Shown here piece after piece: positions 13,201-51,560 of a stretch of 64,000 bases of DNA (the stretch's first letter is position 1; the number at the start of each line of letters is the position of its first letter). The DNA is taken from positions 20,820,086 through 20,884,085 of the forward strand of contig JAHRHZ010000274.1 in NCBI GenBank assembly GCA_024137785.1, given 5' to 3'. Source of the DNA: Ginglymostoma cirratum. Lineage: Eukaryota. Under the pieces are notes generated by a model, which worked only from the letters and a program-made list of their open reading frames with translations, ran no database searches and had not been told where the DNA came from. Both the position numbers and the translations under genes were made by a program.

Positions 13201-14943
13201 TAAATCTCTTTAGAAACATAGGAGTGTTATTTAGCCTTTACAACAGATACCTAAACTATTATTTTACACTTCCAAAATTTTCCCAATTCTAAATGATTAC
13301 TTGAAATGTAAAATCATCAAAGTTATATAGTTACAACTACAATAAATTATGCTAAACGTCTTGTAAAGGAATAAACTATCTTGCTACTGAATTGCAAAAC
13401 TCATTCACCTACATTGAAGTCCATTAGTAATCAGCATGTTTATTTTTTGTTACACTGTTGTCTACTCTGTACAGATCTTTAAATAATCCAAAAGCAAATA
13501 CAGACAAATCCTCAAACAAGATATGCCAAGGAACAGCCTGTTGCTAGCAAATGACTTGAAATGTGAGTCATTGCTAGTGAGATTTGTGAATTTCTACAGG
13601 GTCACACCTCAAATGAAAAATTCTTTAAGAACAATAGATAATACTTCTTAATCCCTTGCAATATGAAATCACAATATCCATTGCCTTTCCAATGAAGAGA
13701 AATGAAATAATACTGTGCAGGGAATGGCAAGAGAATATTACAATCTTTCCTATTTTATGTGGTGATCCAGCACAGCATTTATGCACTGCAATCTGAGTAA
13801 GAATACTCTTATTCAGCCTTGGTAGACTTCTTGTCCTCAGTATTGCTATTGAAAACATATTAGATTAGCAGTATGATACCAACAAGGTATGAATTTGGTT
13901 AGTCCAGAAGCATATGTAAACAAGGAGGTGTCCTTTCCAACTCAGATCAGAATGGAAAGTCATCTTGCAATGTAAATGGGGCTTTTGATAAGCTGATACG
14001 TGAACAAAATGAATGTTGTCTCTTTAACCTCTGAACTAGAAATGCACTTCACTTGCAGAACTGAGAAGCTCTTATTTGCATCCAGTTAAGTCGGTCCCTC
14101 AGGAATCAGGGAGGCTGATTGCACAAGAACATGAAGTTCCAGGAAAGCAAACCTTAATTTACACATTAAGAAAATCAAACTTTATGTTTCAACACTAGAT
14201 AAAGGCATTAAAATCATCATGCTATAAACTCCCACTGTCAATATTAGCAGATTTAATGCATCTCAACTCATGATAGTAGATATTGACTGGTTTATTTTAA
14301 ACGGGTTAACACTTTGGCTGAAACAGCAAAGGAATACACATTAACCTGCATATTACATTTTAGTTTACTTATATCAGTAAAACTCTTATGTTAAAGTGGG
14401 TTCCCTTAATTATGTAGCACATATGGTTTCATAGATCATTTGTAATCTAACAATTTTTGACAGTAATCTGGTTTAACAACTACGTAATTCTTCAAGTTAT
14501 GAGAATCTGTTAATTATGCCTTATATTTGTTCTCATAAGATTGTTTGCTCATCGGATTTTGAAAAATTACTTGACCAACTTTGACAGTTTAAAGATACAT
14601 TGTTGGGCTTGGATTAAAATAGTTTTAATTAACTGACTTGTAAAATTGAAAATGTAGCACCTAAGACAATATTTTATTATAAAAAGTAAGCATTTCTCAA
14701 TCAAGCTCTTCACAGTTTCAGATAATGTGCTTCCAAATGAATGACGTTTACTAAAACTTGGCAATGGACCCTTGTCAGTTTCACTTTGCCTGCAGTCCCA
14801 CAGGCCGAAAACAATATAATGTAGGTAATCACTTAGCGACAATCGTCTTTTTGAAAAAGCATAAAATCATTGCAAACCATTCACAGTTACAGTGGTGCTA
14901 TGGAGGATAAAAGGCACAAGTTAAACAGCTGATCATGATGTCA

Positions 14944-15501
<558 letters not shown>

Positions 15502-23480: not shown

Positions 23481-23704
23481 AGATAGTAGGAACTGCAGAT
23501 GCCGGAGAATCTGAGATCACAAGGTGGAGATAAAGTCCTATCTTTACAGTCAAGATACCCTTCTTCATGTAGTTTGGCACTATCTCTGTACTAGACTGAA
23601 AAAAATTTTTCTGAAGAAGGGTCTAGGCGCGAAACGTCAGCCTTCCTGCTCCTCTGATGCTGCTTGACCTGCTGTGTTCATCCAGCTCGACACCTTGTTA
23701 TCTC
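23481..23704. mobile_element. Penelope-like inverted pLTR insertion nested in a LINE, with ~16-bp TSD and internal 70-bp templated segment
   Basis: Flanked by catgcacccaagccaa (23465-23480) and catgtacccaagccaa (23704-23719). Left arm agatagtaggaactgcagatgccggagaatc, right arm ctgaagaagggtctagg...ccttgttatctc. Confidence 0.8.
23611..23638 (+). ncRNA. Hammerhead ribozyme motif with one mismatch in stem II
   Basis: CTGAAGA-A-GGGTCTAGGCGC-GAAA-CGTC. Confidence 0.55.
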
Positions 23705-26700
23705 ATGTACCCAAGCCAAGCTGTTCTGGTACAGCCACAACACTGGCATCTACCTGACAATGTAGAAAATTGCATAGGTATGTCCTGTGTGCAAAAAGCA
23801 GGGCAAATCTAACCTGGCCAATTAACATCCTATCAACTACTCATAATCATCAGCAAAGTAATTGAAACAGCCATCGACAATGCCATCAAGTGGCACTTGT
23901 AAAGGAATAACTTAATCATTGATGCTCAGTTTGGGTTCCACCACAGCCACTCAGTCCTGACTTCATTGCGGCCTTGGTTCAGACATGGAGAAAAGAGCTG
24001 AATTCCAGAGGTGTTTTCAGAGTGACTGACCTTGATAGCAAGGCAGCATTTAATATAGTATGGAATCAAGATATCTGAACAAAACTAGAGTCAATGAGAA
24101 TCTGGGGAAAAGACGCTCCACTGGTCAGTGTCATTCCTGGTACAAAGGGAGATGTCAATGGCTTTTGGAGGTCAGTCATCTCAGTTCTAGGACATCTTCA
24201 CAAATATTTCTCAGGGTAGCATCCTGGGCCCAATCATCATCAGCTGCTTCATCAATGACTTTCCCTCCAACATAAGGTCAGAAGTGGGAAGGTTCGTTCA
24301 TGACTGCATAATGTTCAGCACTATTCATAACTCTTAGATACTCTGTTGAAATATAGCAAGACCTGGACAACATCCGGGTTTGGGCTTGTAAGTGGCGAGT
24401 AACATGTCAGCTACTCAAATGCCAGGCAATGACCATCTCGAGGAAGAGACAATCTGTATATTGTCCCTTGATATTCAAAGGCAATACCAACCTTCTGGAG
24501 GTTACTATTGACTAGAAACTAGACTAAACTAGCCACATAAATACAGTGATTTCAAGAGGAGGGCAGAAATTAGGAATCCTGTTGCAAGTAGCTCCACTTC
24601 TGACTGTCCACCATCTATAAGGCACATGTCAGGAGTATGATGGAGTGCTCTCCACATGTGTGGATGAGTGCAGCTCCAACAACATTCAAGAAACTTGACA
24701 CTTCATTTCCACCACCAATGCTCAGTAGCAGCAACGTGTACCATTTAAAACATGCATTGCAGAAATTCATCAAAACTCCTCAGATTGCATATTTCAGAGC
24801 TATGACCACTACCATCTCAAAGAACAAGGGCAGAAGATACATGGGAACATGACCAAGTTCCCTTCCAAGCAACTTACCATCCCAACATGGAATTATGTCG
24901 CTCCCAAAACCCTCCCTAACAGCATGTGGTTACCTACACCAAATGGACTGCAACAGCTATCTTGCATTATGGGTGGCCAGGCCAAGTGCAGCCATCAGGT
25001 GATGAGGGCAAGGATAATTGTAACAGATTTCACAGTTGTAAGTTATTCATCATTTTTAGTTAGGTGTTCCCTTATTATTTGATACTGTGACTTTATTTAT
25101 AGGTAATTCACAAAACTTGGGCAAATTTGAGGAGGCGGTTGCAGAAGGACAAGAGGTTGGCAGACATAAAAGGAGTGGCATTAAAGAACCAACACTGGCA
25201 AGAGGACGAAAATGCAGTGCAACAAGCTTACATATGCAGTTTCCATTATTGTGGACACAGGAATTTATAATAGAGGAAAACATTGGCACAAAAGTATGAT
25301 AAAGATCTAACAGGATGTAACATTTTGTAGACAGGAAATATACACAGATGCAAGATTATTAATATATTGAAGCTATGCAAATTACATTGTAGAAACAGTC
25401 ACTGCAAGGGAATTAAATATGAATGAATAAACTAAACCTTTCAGTATTGATAAATCGATAGTTACGTTTGTAACTAAGAAAAACTGTTACCTGCAAGGTT
25501 GTAACTCCTACCATATGATTTATTAAACATTCGCACTAAACTGTTTTCTTTTAAAAAAAAAAGGAAACATGATAAAGGAAATAAAAGCTATCAAGTTGAA
25601 CTCCTGCAGATGCCAAGACAGTCAATGACTGTTCGTGAAGAAATTCCTTAACATTAAAATTGTTATCCAGAGTAGCATTAGAACATCTACTGAATTTTCT
25701 TGCATCTCAAACCCAACAACTAGACTGGAGGCTTTTGAGAAAAATGTCTACTCTACTCCAATTCTTGGAATTCTACAAGTCACGAGTATACAAGCATCTT
25801 CTATGTTCCTATCTTTCACCGCTTTGACATAACACTTCAGTTGACAAATATTTCATGAGTGCTGTTAATTTTTGAACAATCACTGTGTCCAATAAAATAA
25901 TTAACTGAGGCTTACGTTGGGCTGATGTAATGCTATTTCAGCCTAACTGGATCTTCCACTATGAATAAATAATTGAAATGAATATAGAAGCTTCCCTACT
26001 TTAAAAAAATCATAAACTGAAAAATAACTTGCTTGTCATTTTTTTTGTCCCCTTTCCTGATTTCACGTCATCTTCAGTTCAGAAACGGTCCTTTGGGTCC
26101 TGCTGTGAGGAGATATCTAAAATGTTCTCTAATAACTCTCTTGATGTTTGCTTTCTCTTTTTAAGAAACCAGGTAGTGTGGCAGAGAACCCTTGGCCAAC
26201 ACCTAGGTACAGGTGATCCAAAGTGGTTAAGACAAAGCATTACAGACTGCCACCACAATAGCATGTTGTCTTTCTTTTCCACAAAGAACAAGGTAGCTGT
26301 AATTTGTAATGGATAAATGTAAGTATTTGATGCTACCATGGTTAAAAACAAACATCAACAGGAGAGTAAAATTATTCCAGGTCAATAGGACAAGGAGGAA
26401 ACTCAAGGTGAACTTTGAAAATTGAACACTTGAGCAATTAGCTATTCTACTAGACGAATAGTTCTTATTCCAGCTAGACAACAAGAACCAACGCACATAC
26501 TGCAGAATTGTTAGCCACGGCGAAGACTCGGGATATATTAATAAGTCACTAAGAATTTACACAATTCTTAATGAAGGGAAGATTCCTGCATGGCAATAGT
26601 TGCCTCTTGGAGATAATAAACAATAATTTAATCATAAACTAAAGCTTAAACATAAAAATTATCAATTTTCCCTGCACCCAATATCAATCACTCTCAAATC

Positions 26701-38072: not shown

Positions 38073-38410
38073 GTGGCACGGTGGCTCAGTGGTTAGCACT
38101 GCTGCCTCACAGCACTAGGGACCCGGGTTTGATCTGCCCTCAGGTGATTGTCTGTTGGAGTTTGCACATTCTCCCATTGTCTGCGTGGGTTTCCTCCAGG
38201 CGCTCCAATTTCCACCCACAATACAAAGACACGCAGGCCAGGTGGATTAGCCATGCTAAATTCCCCATTGCGTTCAGGGATGTGTAGATCAGTTGTGTTA
38301 GCCATGGGAAAATGCAGGGTGACAGGGAAAGGGTCTGGGTGGGATGCTCTTCGGAGGGCTGGTATGGACTTGTTGGGCCGAAGGGCCTGTTTTCATGCAA
38401 AGATTCTATA
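38073..38410 (+). mobile_element. tRNA-derived SINE (HE1/V-SINE type)
   Basis: gtggcacggtggctcagtggttagcactgctgcctcacagc...gggtttgat...ggagtttgcacattctcc...gggccgaagggcctgttt tail. Confidence 0.9.
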
Positions 38411-38421
38411 CTTCATGAGTA

Positions 38422-38564
38422 GAGATAAAAGGTACTGCAGATGCTGGAGAATCCGAGATAACAGGCTGGATGAACACAGCAGGTCAAGCAGCATCATAGG
38501 AGCAGGAAAACTTGACGTTTCGGGCCTAAACCCTTCATCAGAAATCTGATGAAGATTTATCTCT
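38422..38564 (-). mobile_element. Penelope-like element pseudo-LTR (young copy) with fold-back junction
   Basis: gagataaaaggtactgcagatgctggagaatcc...cttgacgtttcgggcctaaacccttcatcaga, near-identical to 41665-41728 and to the reverse complement of 42129-42221. Followed by the hairpin cttcatcaga-aa-tctgatgaag. Confidence 0.75.
38514..38541 (-). ncRNA. Minimal type I hammerhead ribozyme motif (Penelope type)
   Basis: Minus strand CTGATGA-A-GGGT[TTAG]GCCC-GAAA-CGTC: complete catalytic core, 4-bp stem II, very short palindromic helix III, GUC cleavage triplet. Confidence 0.7.
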
Positions 38565-40719
38565 GATAAATGAAGGAGTTAGTTATCTGTAATATCAGTA
38601 TTCCCTTCTAAATTATTTGGTATGAGTTTGTCTCCTTATAATTTTTATGTGGAATGGTATCCACAATAAAGATATTGTGAAAGCCCTTGTTACCTTTTAG
38701 CACTGCATGCTACAGTGTACACAAGATGCATCAAGTCTGAACTACTTGCACAAAAGAGACACAAGAACAAGATTAGAAAACTTCAGTTATTCAGAATGTG
38801 CATATTGTTGTCAACTAAATCTACACTGTGGAATATTATTTCTCGCAGTTTGAAAGAACATTTTTGCTCTCCAAGGTGCAGGAAAAATGGAGTTACATAA
38901 GTAAAATGTTGTGCATCACCGATTAGTTTTAAATGACGAAGTTAAATTTTGTGGAAGTGCATGCATCAGAAAGGGAACCCTGCAGATTAACAAGGGAAAA
39001 TGAATGCCTTATAGCATCTAAAATGGACTCATTGTTAGATGAGGATAAAGACTTATCAATTAGTCGATGCTACTTTTGGAATTATTGTCACTCAATCTAT
39101 ATTCATAAATGTGATTCATTAAAAAATATTCAATTGACAGCATTACTTTTAATATAATCCTGTCCTGTTCAGGCAGTACAAAAGTATCTTTCTGGTATGA
39201 AGCTGGAATTTGAGATTGTACTTTCTTCATGATGAGGGAGTAATGGAACAACACATTACATTTCTCCTGATATTAATCTAAAGTAATCACTTCACCTGGT
39301 TAGGTCATTTTGATTTCTCCCAATTATGGCAACATTTAGTTTGATGATTATCGGCAGCTGCTTATGTTTTTAACAACTTTCATTTCTATGGTTTGCCCTT
39401 ATCCATAACGTGGTTGGAATCTTCCAAAAAAAAGTGAGTAAGTCCAAAAGTAGAAGAGTTTGGAGGAGGGAAACCCACCATCTACAAAGATGGCACAGCC
39501 CACTAAACCTCCAGCAGACAGCTGGGCTTTCTACCAGAATTAAGGAAATGCCAGTTGCCAAGAGTTGGCAGCCAGTTCAGAGGTCAGCTACTCCAGCAGT
39601 CCCATGGCAAAGCAATGGCTGCGCTAAAATCGCTCCTTCATACAGACTCCCAGCGATGATGATGTTTGGGGTTGAGGTGGTGGGGGATGGAGGGGATAGA
39701 AGATTGTTTCTAGTGTTCAGGATTATGGGGAAAATGGGATATGGGGATTGTAAGCAAGGGCAAATGGTGATTTTCAGTGGCCACCCACCTGCCCCAGGTT
39801 TAGTCCTTCAGTTGTGCAAATATCAAGGGCACTGTTTCCAATTGATAACCTGCCCACACTGGTTTAGCTGTCGAGTAGGCCAACTCTTTGTTGTAGAGTC
39901 TAGAGCTGAAATAACTATAGTCCAGAAGAGATGTGGCCCAGGCAGTCATTATGTTCACTTTCTACCTCCAGTTCTGGAAGATTTCTTCCAATTGCGTTAT
40001 CCAGTGTTGAAAACTTGGGGCATGTACTGTAAAATAGCCATCAGAAATGACATTTCAATTCCCTAGTGTATCCAGGGGATCCTTTGATAGTGGGAGACTG
40101 GCAAAATTGCAAAAGAATTTCAACTGGCAGCGACATTTATACTTTATGAAGAAATTGGAATACTATTAGTAAATGCACGCAAATATCCGTATATGTGAGA
40201 GTTTCTACTGTGTTACGAATTATTTTCCGAACTAAGTACAAAATATTACAGGAAACAGTACACTAACATCAAGTCAAATCAAAAATGTACTGCATGAATG
40301 TCTGTATTTAGTGTTAGTTAACTGATTATTAAAGCAGGCAAATAGCCTGCATAATGGCCGTAAGGCTAAGTTATTTTAGTTTTGACAGACAAGAACTCCT
40401 GGCAAGGAAAGGTTTCTTTTTAAAATGACTGTCGCTTTGCTAAAGTTTGGCACCGAGACAGAAGTATGACTCCAAAAATATAAATCCTGCTGAGACACTG
40501 ACTTTGGTGATTACAATTTGGACAGGGTTCAGGACCAGAAGACTTCAGCAATCTTCCACCAGAGCAACGAAGAAAGAAACTTCAGCAAAAAATTGATGAA
40601 ATTAACAAAGAAATCCAGAAAGAATCTGATCAAAAGTAAGTGTGATGCTTCACATAATACAGAATTTCTTTGCAGTTGCGTTGACTGTCCACTATATACA
40701 AGGCATAAGTCGGAAGTGT

Positions 40720-41130
40720 GATGGCATACGCTCAGCTTGTCTGGATGAGTATTGATGCTTGACACCATCAAGGTCAAAATAGCCCACTTGATTGATACCA
40801 CATCCACAAACATCCACTCCCTCTACCACTGACTCCAGTAGCAGCAGTATTTACCATCTACAGGATGCATTGTAGAAATTCAGCACCTTCAAAGCTCGAG
40901 ATCATTACCATCTAGAAAGACAAGGGCAGCAGATAAATGGGAACACGTCTACCTACTAGTCCTCCTTTGAGCCACTCATCACCCTGGCCTTCCTTCATTG
41001 TCACTAGGTAAAAATCCTGGAATTCTGTCCCTAATGGTATTTTGGAACTACCTGCAGCATACAGACTGCAACAGTTCAAGAAGACAATTCACACCACCTT
41101 CTCAAGAACAAATAGAGATGGGTAATAAAT
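40720..41130 (+). mobile_element. LINE 3' fragment (same family as 21870-24960)
   Basis: cttgacaccatcaagg...tagcagcagtatttaccatctacaggatgcattg...aagacaagggcagcagata. Confidence 0.7.
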
Positions 41131-41139
41131 CACAATTGT

Positions 41140-41664
41140 TTTAGCATAGGAGGAGGCCATTCAGCCCATTGTGCCTGTCTGGTTCTGTCACTTAGTGCCA
41201 GTCTCCCACCTTTTCCCTAAATCCCTGCACACCATTTCTATCCAAATAATCATCCAGAACCCTTGATTGTCTTTATTGAACTTGCCTGTATCACATTTCC
41301 AAGCAGTGCATTCCATACCCTAACTACTTGTTGTGTGAAAAAAATTTTCTTATATCACCCCTGCTTTGTTTGCATGTCACTTTAAATCAATGTCCTCTCA
41401 TTCTTCTTCCTTTTATGAGCAGGAATAGCTGTCCTATCCAGCCTGCTCATGATTTAAAAAAACTCCACTAAATCTTCTGTCAGCTGCCTTTTCTCCAAGT
41501 ACGACACTCCCAACTTCTTTAATCTACCCTCAGATCTGAAATTTCTCATTCCTAAAACCATCCTTGTACATTGCTTCTGCACTGTCTCCAAAGCATTCAC
41601 ATTTTTCCTATAATGGGGTGGCCACAACTGTACACAGCACTCCAGCTGAAGTCTAACAGGTATA
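41140..41664 (-). mobile_element. CR1 LINE 3' fragment, truncated by the Penelope insertion
   Basis: Starts with the reverse tail ataggaggaggccattcagcccatt and ends ...aactgtacacagcactccagctga (LECCVQLW on the minus strand). Confidence 0.75.
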
Positions 41665-41728
41665 AGAGATAAAAGGTACTACAGATGCTGGAGAATCCGA
41701 AATAACAAGGTGTGGGGCTGGATGAACA

Positions 41729-42128
41729 NNNNNNNNNNNNNNNNNNNNNNNNNNNNNNNNNNNNNNNNNNNNNNNNNNNNNNNNNNNNNNNNNNNNNNNN
41801 NNNNNNNNNNNNNNNNNNNNNNNNNNNNNNNNNNNNNNNNNNNNNNNNNNNNNNNNNNNNNNNNNNNNNNNNNNNNNNNNNNNNNNNNNNNNNNNNNNNN
41901 NNNNNNNNNNNNNNNNNNNNNNNNNNNNNNNNNNNNNNNNNNNNNNNNNNNNNNNNNNNNNNNNNNNNNNNNNNNNNNNNNNNNNNNNNNNNNNNNNNNN
42001 NNNNNNNNNNNNNNNNNNNNNNNNNNNNNNNNNNNNNNNNNNNNNNNNNNNNNNNNNNNNNNNNNNNNNNNNNNNNNNNNNNNNNNNNNNNNNNNNNNNN
42101 NNNNNNNNNNNNNNNNNNNNNNNNNNNN
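41729..42128. other. Assembly gap (400 N)
   Basis: Run of N. Confidence 1.
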
Positions 42129-42155
42129 TGATGAAGGGTTTAGGCCCGAAACGTC
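42129..42155 (+). ncRNA. Hammerhead ribozyme motif (first C lost in the gap)
   Basis: (C)TGATGA-A-GGGTTTAGGCCC-GAAA-CGTC, identical to the motif at 38514-38541. Confidence 0.65.
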
Positions 42156-44945
42156 AAGTTTTCCTGCTCCTATGATGCTGCTTGACCTGCTGTGTTCATC
42201 CAGCCCCATGCTTGTTATCTCATACTTCATGAGTATCTGTTTTGGAAATGTGCTAAAAATGGTAAAAGAGATATGTCTGTGGGATGTTTGACTATAAAAT
42301 TAAATCTGATTTTACAACAAAGAATTAATAGCAATATCACACATATAACATTTTCTCTGTAATTTCTGTATTAATTATTTGCATATCTGCTGCCATCTTT
42401 CATTGCTAGGGCGGTTGATTAACTGTTTGTCAGAGTTACAGTCCCAAACCTCTGCTTCCTGTCCAGCATCCTTAATGATTTATCATCTTTAGGAATATAT
42501 TAATCCATATAATAATTTGGGTGCCCACTTATTTAATGACTCATCCAACATGCTGTTTGAAAACCCATGTCTTATCTTTCTGATTGTTGTGTTTCTTTTG
42601 GTTGTGATTATTGTATAGAGTGTAATTTCTGTAGTTATTCTTATGACACATATATTGAATGTTTTCCATGCCAAAGAGCCACAATGAAAACTCCCTGCAT
42701 CTTAGTCATTAATAATGTTAAGCTGGTAGAGTGTTGACACTAGTTATCATAACTTGAAGTGAGATTTGGACTTAGTAGGATGATTTCCATCTCAAGTCAG
42801 AAAGTGAAGTGTTTCAGCCTCATTGCAGGCAGCTGTAGGAAGTGAGGGCTGCAATAAAGTCTCTAAATGTAGATAACCAGTGGGGTACATGCATCCAGAC
42901 TGAGAGGGCACTGGTCCAGCTGCTCAGAGGTAGGTTTGTGTCCCACACCTCCCTGCACCATCATAAAAAGGTTGGTCAGGTTATCTAGCCTTGACTGCAG
43001 ACAACTTAATAGGATATTCTAAATATGAAAACCATGAGGAAAGTAACGGCAGTCACCTCAGCTATTCTTCCTTAGTAAATGGTTCAAGAATCTTATACGA
43101 GACTCACATTAGGACCTCCTGCTGAGACACAATCAAATCAGTGGGGAACGCTTAAATTTTATTATTATAAATGAATTATTAAAACATATTCAGAAATAAG
43201 TAGAGACTGAATAATATGCAATATGCCTGTCCACCTATTTGAACTCTTTCTTTATTGGATTTCAGCTTTCTCTTCAATATTTGGTCTAGCACAGTAGAAT
43301 TCCACTGACTCCAGTTCCTAGGCTGACTCTGAATGTAGCCACTGTACCATTCACAGTCTCACTACTACCTGCCTACCATTAAAACCATAGTCCAAACTCC
43401 ACAGATCAGAATCAACAGTACAGGTATTCCACCAGCAATAAACATATTGCCTGAGAATTCTGCATTCCTACAAATGCAGTAACATTCTGGAATATAATAC
43501 CAGCCTGTTTAGTACAAATAGGATTCACTACTACATATTTAACTCAAAACATTACATATTATTTAATATGCTGACTCAAAGGAGATTTTGATTGATTCCT
43601 GTATTGATTTCTCTGTGGATATTTAGATTTCCCAGCAATTGGCTGGTGAGTAGAATATTAAAATCAAGGTCATTACCTGACAAACAGCAAAAAACATTGT
43701 AACTTCATAAAATGGAGTGTGCAGCCTAAGTCCCAAAGTATCAAAAATAAGTCTGTAATTTGTTAAAAAACAAAAATTTAGCACTGTTGCCTTCCTTTGT
43801 GCTGTCCGGCCTATTAAGGTCAGAAAGATTCAGTTGAGATAAGATTTCTTTTCCCTGATGGAAGAATATGCAGAAATTTCATCGGAACAAAGGTACTTGA
43901 GAAAGGACTTTTTTTTAAGCAACCTCTATCTATTTAGATGATAGGGGAACCATTTTGAATATACTAAAGCAATGCTACTGTCCTAACTTCCAGTAGAGCA
44001 CAACAAATCCTTATTCAGATTCCCTTAGAGAAATGTCTTCTTCACTCTGCATTTGCTTTGAGACACTTCTGTTTATCAAAGTGAAAGATATCACTGCCGG
44101 GCAACAGAATAGCTTTCACATTTTACATTTCAGTCACCTGGTGTCAACATTAAGTACTTTCAGTCAGCTATGGCACAACTAGAAACTCCACTGATGTCCG
44201 AGCATGTACATTATCTCTACCTTTGGGGGAACACTTCCAAAAACATGAGTGCAACATTACTGACTCCATTCACAGCATCCTCCAGCCTCCCTGATCATGT
44301 GTCCCAACAAATGCTAATTTTAGGGTAAGTTTATGCTTTGGATTGAACTGTCCAAATTAATTACAAATTGGATCTTTATAGCCAACAGCGGGCTCATTAG
44401 TCTGGAATAAATCCAAACAACTTGAAAAAGTGAAAAGTCAGCTTGCAATCCAGACCTCTAGCACAAAACATATCACTAATAAATTATTTAATTTTGCCTT
44501 TTGAAAGCAAGAACTAAGGAATCTAAGCTGGCGAGTTTATGCTTCCAATATATGATAAATCCTCTGTCGGCCTGAGCAATATTTAATCATCTTTCCAATC
44601 AATAATAAAATATTAGTTTGAAATTTATTACGTATTCTAACTATATTTTTTGTTTCTAGATTTATTTAAAACATAGTTCAAACTATACATTCTACAATCA
44701 AATTGCATGATACAAAGCAAAGTGAAGATGAGAAAATATCATTTAGTGCATTGAGGCCTGCCCTTTCCAGAGATCAGGTAAAATCTATCAAAATGTGGAT
44801 CCTACCCAATATACTTCATACCATCAGCAGAAATTTCACAAAAAAACCATAGCGTCTACCAAAGAAAATTAAGCCAAATTTTAGAATATTTAAATACCTC
44901 CACTTTGATTTTTTCAAGAGATGTGGAGGTTGCTGCTGACTCTAG

Positions 44946-50399: not shown

Positions 50400-51560
50400 A
50401 CACTTGAAAGTTGACGGCAACAAATATGTGCACCTTTCAGTAATATAAATGTGGGGAGGGGTGGGCAAGAGGGAGAAACAACGAGAGAAAAAAAGTCCTC
50501 TCCGCTCTGCAGAAGACCTTCTTATTTCTAAGAAGCCACAGAAACATTTTCTTTTTGTCAAACTTCGTAGCGGCGGATGGAACAGTCCTGCACAGAACTG
50601 GGCGAAGTTGGAAGGAGGCAAAGCTGCGCTTTCCATTGGATTTTCGCACACAACAGGGAGAAAAAAAAACAAACTGAGCGTCGGAGTTGGATTTTTTTTC
50701 TGTGTGTCAAGATGGATTGCGTTGGCAGGAGGTGCCTGGGGAGGGCCAGGGGAGAAAAAGGACTAACCCGGGGAGCACGGAAAGCATGCTGCAGAAATTA
50801 TCCCGCCATTTTTAACAGTAACCGCGTCCCGAGGAAAATACAATGCGGTGAATGTGGGCGAAATGCGGGGGAGGGAGGGAAAAGCCGTCCACTGGCAGCG
50901 GCAGTAACCGACCTGATCACTAAATCACCTCAGAGATGGACATTACCTGAGTCAGGCAGAGCGGAGAATACATCATGACGACCTGGAGTTAAAGTCGCAG
51001 ATCATCCAAAAGTTACTGGATCATCGTGACATCTCGCCTCACAGCGACTAAATCCCACCCCCAAACACAATTAATAATTATATATATAATAGAGAGAGGG
51101 AGGGCAGTGGGCACTTAGCACGGACTATCTGAAGGAAAGCTGCTCTGGAAACTGGGCTTCATCTGTCAAACGGTGAGAAAGGGGGGGGGGGGGAGAATAA
51201 AGGAGAGCGAACCAGGAATGACGCGACTGTCCTGACCAAGCCCCCAAAAACAAACGTCTGACTTCAGGGAATTTCTGCCATTAGACCCAAATTTCCGCAC
51301 CACTCTCAGCCCCGCTGTCAGCCAATGGACCGAGGCCACTGGGAGATCGCCGGCAATGTAAATAAGCCCAGCCACTTCCCTCCTCCCCTTCTCTTTTAAC
51401 TCTTCGCTGCTCACGATCGTTCGTCAAAACGCACTGGGGCAATAATAAAAAAAAGTTAGCGCCGCTTTAAGAGCCGCGCTTTAAAGGCAGGCTTGCCCCA
51501 GACGCAACGCAGCCCCTGCGTTCAAACAGACACAACGGTCCCTATCCTGGATTTTAAAAA
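50400..51560 (-). promoter_or_regulatory. CpG-rich proximal promoter, 5' UTR and start of intron 1 of the NFI gene
   Basis: Marked CpG/GC enrichment against the CpG-depleted intron. CCAAT box (agccaatgg, ~51320), forkhead-like TGTAAATA (~51357), G-run at 51181-51193. Surrounds coding exon 1. Confidence 0.75.
50947..50976 (-). CDS. NFIC: NFI coding exon 1 (MMYSPLCLTQ)
   Basis: Minus strand ATG ATG TAT TCT CCG CTC TGC CTG ACT CAG|gtaatg matches the conserved NFI N-terminus (M)MYSPxCLTQ. The phase-0 donor joins in frame to DEFHPF. Intron 1 is 15481-50946. Confidence 0.93.

Follow-up and report, generated by a model that had tools for sequence, protein, structure and literature searches.

Host DNA between Penelope arms in an NFI intron of Ginglymostoma cirratum: a probable assembly mis-join and a class of smaller insertions with traceable donors

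A 3.8-kb unit in NFI intron 1

The 64,000-nucleotide stretch of Ginglymostoma cirratum DNA analysed here (the window; GenBank assembly GCA_024137785.1, contig JAHRHZ010000274.1, positions 20,820,086 to 20,884,085 of the forward strand) carries an NFI gene on its minus strand and, within an intron of that gene, a 3.8-kb unit bounded by arms of Penelope-like elements (PLEs). Exon 2 was recognised by Pfam and exon 1 is presumably the short stretch at 50947-50970 (minus strand), which we placed by a motif; on this basis the intron named in a preliminary description of the window is intron 1. Both NFI flanks of the unit are single-copy in the genome. The interior of the unit proves to be an exact copy of DNA from another scaffold, C35, which was probably put there by the assembly, whilst smaller and ungapped hairpins elsewhere in the genome hold host DNA of their own.

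The unit begins and ends with a 14-bp target-site duplication (TSD) that has only these two copies within the window (Table 1); in 20,000 random pairs of 30 x 30 nt no 14-nt match arose by chance. Between the TSD copies lie a minus-sense arm, or pseudo-long terminal repeat (pLTR), with a hammerhead motif, about 3.1 kb of DNA with old long interspersed nuclear element (LINE) pieces and no reverse transcriptase (RT) open reading frame, a second minus-sense arm end, a 400-N gap and an inverted plus-sense arm, all as the preliminary description had it. A 230-amino-acid open frame at 39374-40066 gave no match in a Pfam search.

Table 1. Positions in the window of the parts of the unit and of NFI exon 2
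Feature	Position	Strand	Remarks
Left copy of the 14-bp TSD of hairpin element A	38408..38421	+	
Tailed pLTR arm of element A	38422..38546	-	Minimal hammerhead motif at 38514-38541
Crossover interval	38497..38554		58 nt that take in the palindromic hairpin centre; arm A and donor element C agree exactly here
Tract identical to G000:C35	38497..41728	+	3,232 nt, up to the gap edge
14-bp TSD of donor element C	38563..38576	+	Single copy; C's short inverted arm lies just before it
Orphan coding exon, FNBP1/FNBP1L/TRIP10 (TOCA) family	~40526..40635	+	First part of HR1 domain; AG/GT bounded, putative boundaries
Old LINE fragment	41125..41664	-	CR1-like in the preliminary description; interrupted at the donor by element B and continues there
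14-bp TSD of donor element B	41648..41661	+	Single copy
Tail end of donor element B pLTR arm	41665..41728	-	Cut by the gap
400-N gap	41729..42128		Placeholder length
Untailed inverted pLTR arm of element A	42129..42221	+	
Right copy of the 14-bp TSD of element A	42222..42235	+	
NFI exon 2	14941-15501	-	Pfam

The two minus-sense arms had been taken for one direct pair. They are in fact different copies, the left arm differing from element B of the C35 locus described below by seven mismatches and a gap in 122 nt, and it is the two outer arms that match each other, being identical over 86/86 nt apart from a 7-nt deletion in the left arm (at 38463/38464). Between the right arm and the gap-side end of B there are three differences in 29 nt as well as a gap. 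Nor does the left arm match element C, the other arm-bearing element at C35: at 38496 it carries the family-majority allele, found in 157 of 161 copies compared, where C has a private allele (1/161), and it carries a tail that C lacks. Since the outer arms agree with one another but with neither donor, they and the TSD are a separate insertion, an independent young Penelope-type hairpin that we call element A. The single insertion proposed earlier is therefore upheld for the TSD and its arms; the 3.8 kb seemingly arriving as a unit is more likely a mis-join.

The arms of A match both ends of another element in the genome (L055), the interior of which matches PF01541 (GIY-YIG) above cutoff; its RT fragment gave no Pfam match. 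The outer arms thus belong to a family with GIY-YIG, are inverted, bear a tail at one end and lie within a TSD, these being the marks of an endonuclease-positive (EN+) PLE insertion. A 48-nt core of the arm occurs in 23,118 exact copies in the genome. As read from the sequence, the arm contains a type I minimal hammerhead core with stem II and a palindromic stem III, stem II being present in two of three folds, and its cut is predicted between 38513 and 38514; a scan of the window with Rfam returned one chance match and no hammerhead. The motif type was assigned after a description of minimal PLE hammerheads (PMC4209133). A LINE elsewhere in the window encloses an older and more diverged inverted-arm element of the same family (23481-23706), which has an apparent 13-bp TSD and whose arms are separated by about 80 nt of non-arm sequence.

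The donor locus on C35

A genome search with positions 38560-41670 gave two full matches, the window itself and G000:C35:30399447-30402557 on the minus strand (3,111/3,111). Exact identity extends further, over 38497-41728, corresponding to the minus strand of C35 around 30,399,390-30,402,620, and ends at the gap edge. With A-type arms outside and C35-type sequence inside, the switch into C35 must fall within the 58-nt crossover interval at the palindromic centre. The preliminary description had suggested that the middle came from another locus at which the CR1 would continue, and this is what we found. On C35 the segment is flanked by two complete Penelope insertions that have separate 14-bp TSDs: B, a 345-bp hairpin beyond which the old LINE resumes, and C, of 114 bp, whose second arm is nearly deleted. 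The sense arms of B and C form direct repeats around the segment with their core hammerhead motifs intact, and C35 has no gap in the 25 kb around the donor. The donor region is flanked by two older hairpins (L002, 330-560 and 4880-5110), which belong to related families and have hammerhead-like motifs.

The segment, described earlier as non-coding, contains a coding exon. Its translation matches FNBP1L (E 1.7e-11) and covers HR1_TOCA positions 3-36; on C35, positions 35-83 of the same domain lie 3.6 kb further and an SH3 exon lies 31 kb on, in an FNBP1/TOCA-family gene at G000:C35:30369001-30400606 (minus strand, HR1 and SH3 exons). The genome holds three paralogous loci of this family in addition to the copy in the window, the paralogues being on C273 and C86. 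The full-length donor, the neighbours of the exon on C35 and the single-copy NFI flanks together show that the 3.2-kb middle segment is native to C35.

Sequence runs from a relative about 96% alike bear on the history of both loci. Its contigs depart from the window exactly at 38563, the TSD of C, and run on for 287 further letters; others, in two of the three runs listed with such pieces, begin exactly at 42222, the TSD of A, with 49 letters beyond it that are off the arm. Empty sites would look like this, and relatives appear to lack both insertions, A and C. That the 3.1 kb might instead belong to the NFI intron and have been rearranged between two insertions, or that C35 might be a haplotig of the region, has a negligible chance of being right: we found no support for either, and the order of the exon's neighbours on C35, the single-copy flanks on both sides and the departure of the relative's contigs at 38563 all weigh against them.

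Host DNA fillers in Penelope hairpins

Real insertions of host DNA do occur between Penelope arms in this genome. A search for mixed-arm patterns led to the first ungapped case, L248 (G000:C250:4725742-4726241), a hairpin within a 15-bp TSD whose arms differ at a diagnostic site; its GC-rich filler of 338 nt has no second copy anywhere in the assembly, and an Rfam scan of it gave only one chance match. Non-canonical spacers of about 210-390 nt, searched for with three patterns, then gave 51, 22 and 33 strand matches, from which 43 loci were read, 44 with L248. These comprised 36 arm pairs, 15 of them ungapped, TSD-bounded (at least 11 of 13 nt) and holding at least 100 nt of non-element DNA. 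Two were dropped, L299 being element-derived and L302 a nested repeat, leaving 13 with fillers of 166-355 nt.

Donors were traced for 12 of the 13, at 90-100% identity (for L301, L303 and L313 as search matches). Ten lie 0.3-3.3 kb from the site (L264, L266, L267, L272, L275, L292, L294, L303, L313 and L316; 208-355 nt, six inverted and four direct, 90-100% alike) and two on other scaffolds. One of the latter, L301 (G000:C278:606370-606684), has a 287-nt filler 97% alike to C38:8270201-8270477. The other, L271 (G000:C55:9733153-9733424), is an ungapped hairpin with a 13-bp TSD and a donor (L278, G000:C56:15087220-15087443) 95% alike; its tailed arm leads into the centre, the inverted arm and the TSD of the donor and then into 153 nt of the donor's flank (four mismatches), an order that mirrors the left junction in the window.

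Being diverged and ungapped, these fillers are not assembly duplicates, and a class of host DNA fillers with traceable donors at the Penelope inversion junction is real. An early survey of 70 TSD-bounded pairs had shown no foreign filler, in a sample biased to gapped or element-filled copies, and the 13 later cases overturn that result. Such fillers may arise when a free cDNA end copies nearby or homologous DNA before joining. At G000:C21:26068559-26069065 (L245, L305) we also observed a compound insertion, in which a hairpin leads into its own flank, copied in inverse orientation, and then into a third arm.

Mis-join, capture or ribozyme

How, then, did an exact copy of C35 come to lie between the arms of A? 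The 3.2 kb were, on balance, probably placed there by an assembly mis-join. During insertion both DNA ends at the nick would prime cDNA on element RNA and meet head to head, giving a hairpin; on reaching its palindromic centre, a short-read assembler could take the one unique exit available, donor element C with its second arm almost deleted, follow C35 for 3.2 kb, halt in the next arm (B) and leave a placeholder gap. With an overlap of 8 nt between the two contig ends at the centre of the palindrome, the true insertion would be about 218 bp. The tract starts inside the 23,118-copy repeat and ends in the next such repeat, at the gap edge, and over its 3,232 nt shows no difference from C35, where some 57 would be expected at the mean divergence of nine aligned real captures (1.8%) and 47 if divergence between the arms of sister elements (45/3,124) is taken as the guide. 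Under a simple exponential age model and the ages seen, the chance of zero differences is about 2-4%. The same 33-nt centre occurs at 72 other places, among which only C35 has the continuation found in the window; an N gap lies within 40 nt in 55 of them (25/30 and 30/42, one element being counted on both strands) and on the other side in six more.

A length of 400 N is shared by 70 of the 86 distinct internal gaps at the loci examined, a sample enriched for hairpins, and such gaps often separate contig ends that overlap at a hairpin centre. The gap lengths, 400 N included, resemble the placeholder conventions of a linked-read assembler. TSD-paired arms at L200, L204, L048 and L051 are separated by 3,000 or 5,000 N; as the ends at L200 and L204 come together at the centre of the hairpin, these lengths may overstate the missing DNA. 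The preliminary description had asked whether other arm pairs share TSDs across kilobases: among 124 pairs examined there are five, all five filled with Penelope sequence. In addition, ten hairpins without an adjacent TSD have no TSD partner within about 4.7 kb. Inverted PLE structures often break short-read assemblies (PMC8557442), gaps beside duplications are a mark of false duplication (bioRxiv 2021.04.09.438957), and gap conventions of 10 and 100 N are described for a linked-read assembler (PMC5411770). An identical copy adjoining a gap, as in short-read false duplications, is what the segment presents, the difference being that it is ectopic and bounded by repeat arms. Assembly error, raised earlier as a caveat, remains the slightly likelier reading, but the suspect join is the ungapped left junction and not the gap.

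Several observations weigh against a mis-join. The left junction is ungapped, with A's private deletion only 92 nt from C35-specific sequence and so within one read; C35 itself was assembled without a gap; and real captures exist at the same junction, L271 having the same anatomy. No second mis-join of the kind was found, L112 and L202 showing no second copy in donor searches and two gapped mixed-arm elements having no distant TSD partner within about 19 kb. Very young copies are common, as shown by arms that are identical in 21 of 39 sister elements. In X12, a same-species run of unrecorded library type that agrees with the assembly in every letter of eight listed pieces, depth on the unique part of the segment is 2.1 times that of the flanks (8 against 11 bins, rank test p 0.006), as against 0.88-0.99 in three runs of the relative; the X12 value is a contig depth and not a copy number, was found with this stretch, and may be a locus effect.

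A real and very recent templated capture during the insertion of A is a serious possibility, which we regard as the less probable account. The free cDNA end of arm A would have paired with the homologous arm of C on C35, as DNA or as read-through RNA, and copied onward through the centre and the TSD of C and across 3.1 kb of intron and exon of the host as far as B, before annealing to the second cDNA; the window would then hold the largest member of the filler class. Such a route is in keeping with the fillers at 13 of 44 loci, the arrangement of L271, the X12 depth ratio and the finding for another PLE that both nicked strands are extended from two start sites, which define the tail (PMC11167929). 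It sits less easily with the absence of any difference in 3,232 nt, with a length about ten times that of any capture found (our patterns reached only about 400 nt) and with tract ends that both lie in repeats, one of them at a gap, just as a mis-join requires.

The retrozyme-like, ribozyme-delimited mobilisation that the preliminary description favoured is very unlikely. On this model an RNA running from B to C on C35 would be cleaved by its two hammerheads and might then be joined to a 3' fragment of an ordinary element RNA; reverse transcription would place it in the NFI intron. The direct repeats with intact core motifs around the donor are suited to this, and the predicted cut falls inside the 58-nt crossover interval. 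Such an RNA predicts donor-type sequence beyond the cut, however, and the arm there resembles that of neither donor element, so that a third RNA has to be invoked; donor RNA alone cannot explain the outer arms with or without hammerhead cuts. In the other PLE, the hammerhead is dispensable in vitro, its mutants having no effect on insertion and no reads ending at the cut (PMC11167929), and the cleavage activity of minimal PLE hammerheads is poor (PMC4209133). Among the 12 captures with donors there is none that requires a hammerhead at the far end, a donor arm being involved only in L271 and the window, and there are no tandem units at the locus. The weights that we give to mis-join, capture and ribozyme are a judgement, in which perfect identity is set against a real class of captures and the depth hint.

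EN+ PLE insertions (PMC8557442) share with the unit the inverted arms, a 30-40-nt tail on one arm only, the TSD, the minimal hammerhead and the presence of GIY-YIG-bearing family members in the genome, but what lies between the arms of the unit is unique host DNA of traceable origin and not element sequence. Trans-mobilisation by PLEs in Adineta vaga (PMC3846280; PMC6431247) is closer, with two direct pLTRs and one inverted pLTR and a TSD around some 3-4 kb of intron-bearing host gene DNA and an empty site in a relative or allele; as assembled, our locus has the same arrangement of pLTRs and TSD around host DNA, with neither junction bridged by a contig of the runs compared. It differs in its 14-bp rather than 8-bp TSD and in that an exact donor was found, the copy is 100% identical and it abuts a gap. 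Terminal repeats derived from the donor, expected on our reading of cis-acting pLTRs, are also missing, the left arm having the majority allele and a tail absent from C. Non-LTR retrozymes (10.64898/2026.07.22.740005) likewise have a type I hammerhead related to PLE pLTRs and no protein of their own, but consist of at least two consecutive tandem units; the unit is a single inverted-arm insertion with unique cargo, its direct arms being different copies 3.2 kb apart. Templated insertions and twin-priming fillers of human L1 (bioRxiv 2024.08.27.596794; PMC11702581) resemble the fillers in placing non-element, often nearby DNA at the junction of two cDNAs. They are typically under 250 bp and templated within 15 bp of the site, whereas the fillers in germline PLE hairpins measure 166-355 nt and have their donors 0.3-3.3 kb from the site or on other scaffolds.

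Published work already covers the carriage of cargo by PLEs (PMC3846280) as well as templated insertions of L1, and the host DNA filler class is a variant of this known behaviour; searches of open-access main texts showed no report of donor-traced fillers at PLE inversion junctions. The class bears on an unsolved step, namely how the two cDNAs are joined. The case in the window is unproven and more likely an artefact. If it is a mis-join, a perfect TSD around cargo is no proof of transduction in a hairpin-rich short-read assembly. Tentatively, Penelope hairpins might instead act as capture devices, a cDNA end using its pLTR homology to jump to any one of the arms resident in the genome, which number tens of thousands. 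If so, host DNA between two resident arms would have been copied and an FNBP1-family coding exon moved into NFI intron 1, which together with the shorter captures would amount to an ongoing route of exon shuffling in a vertebrate germline.

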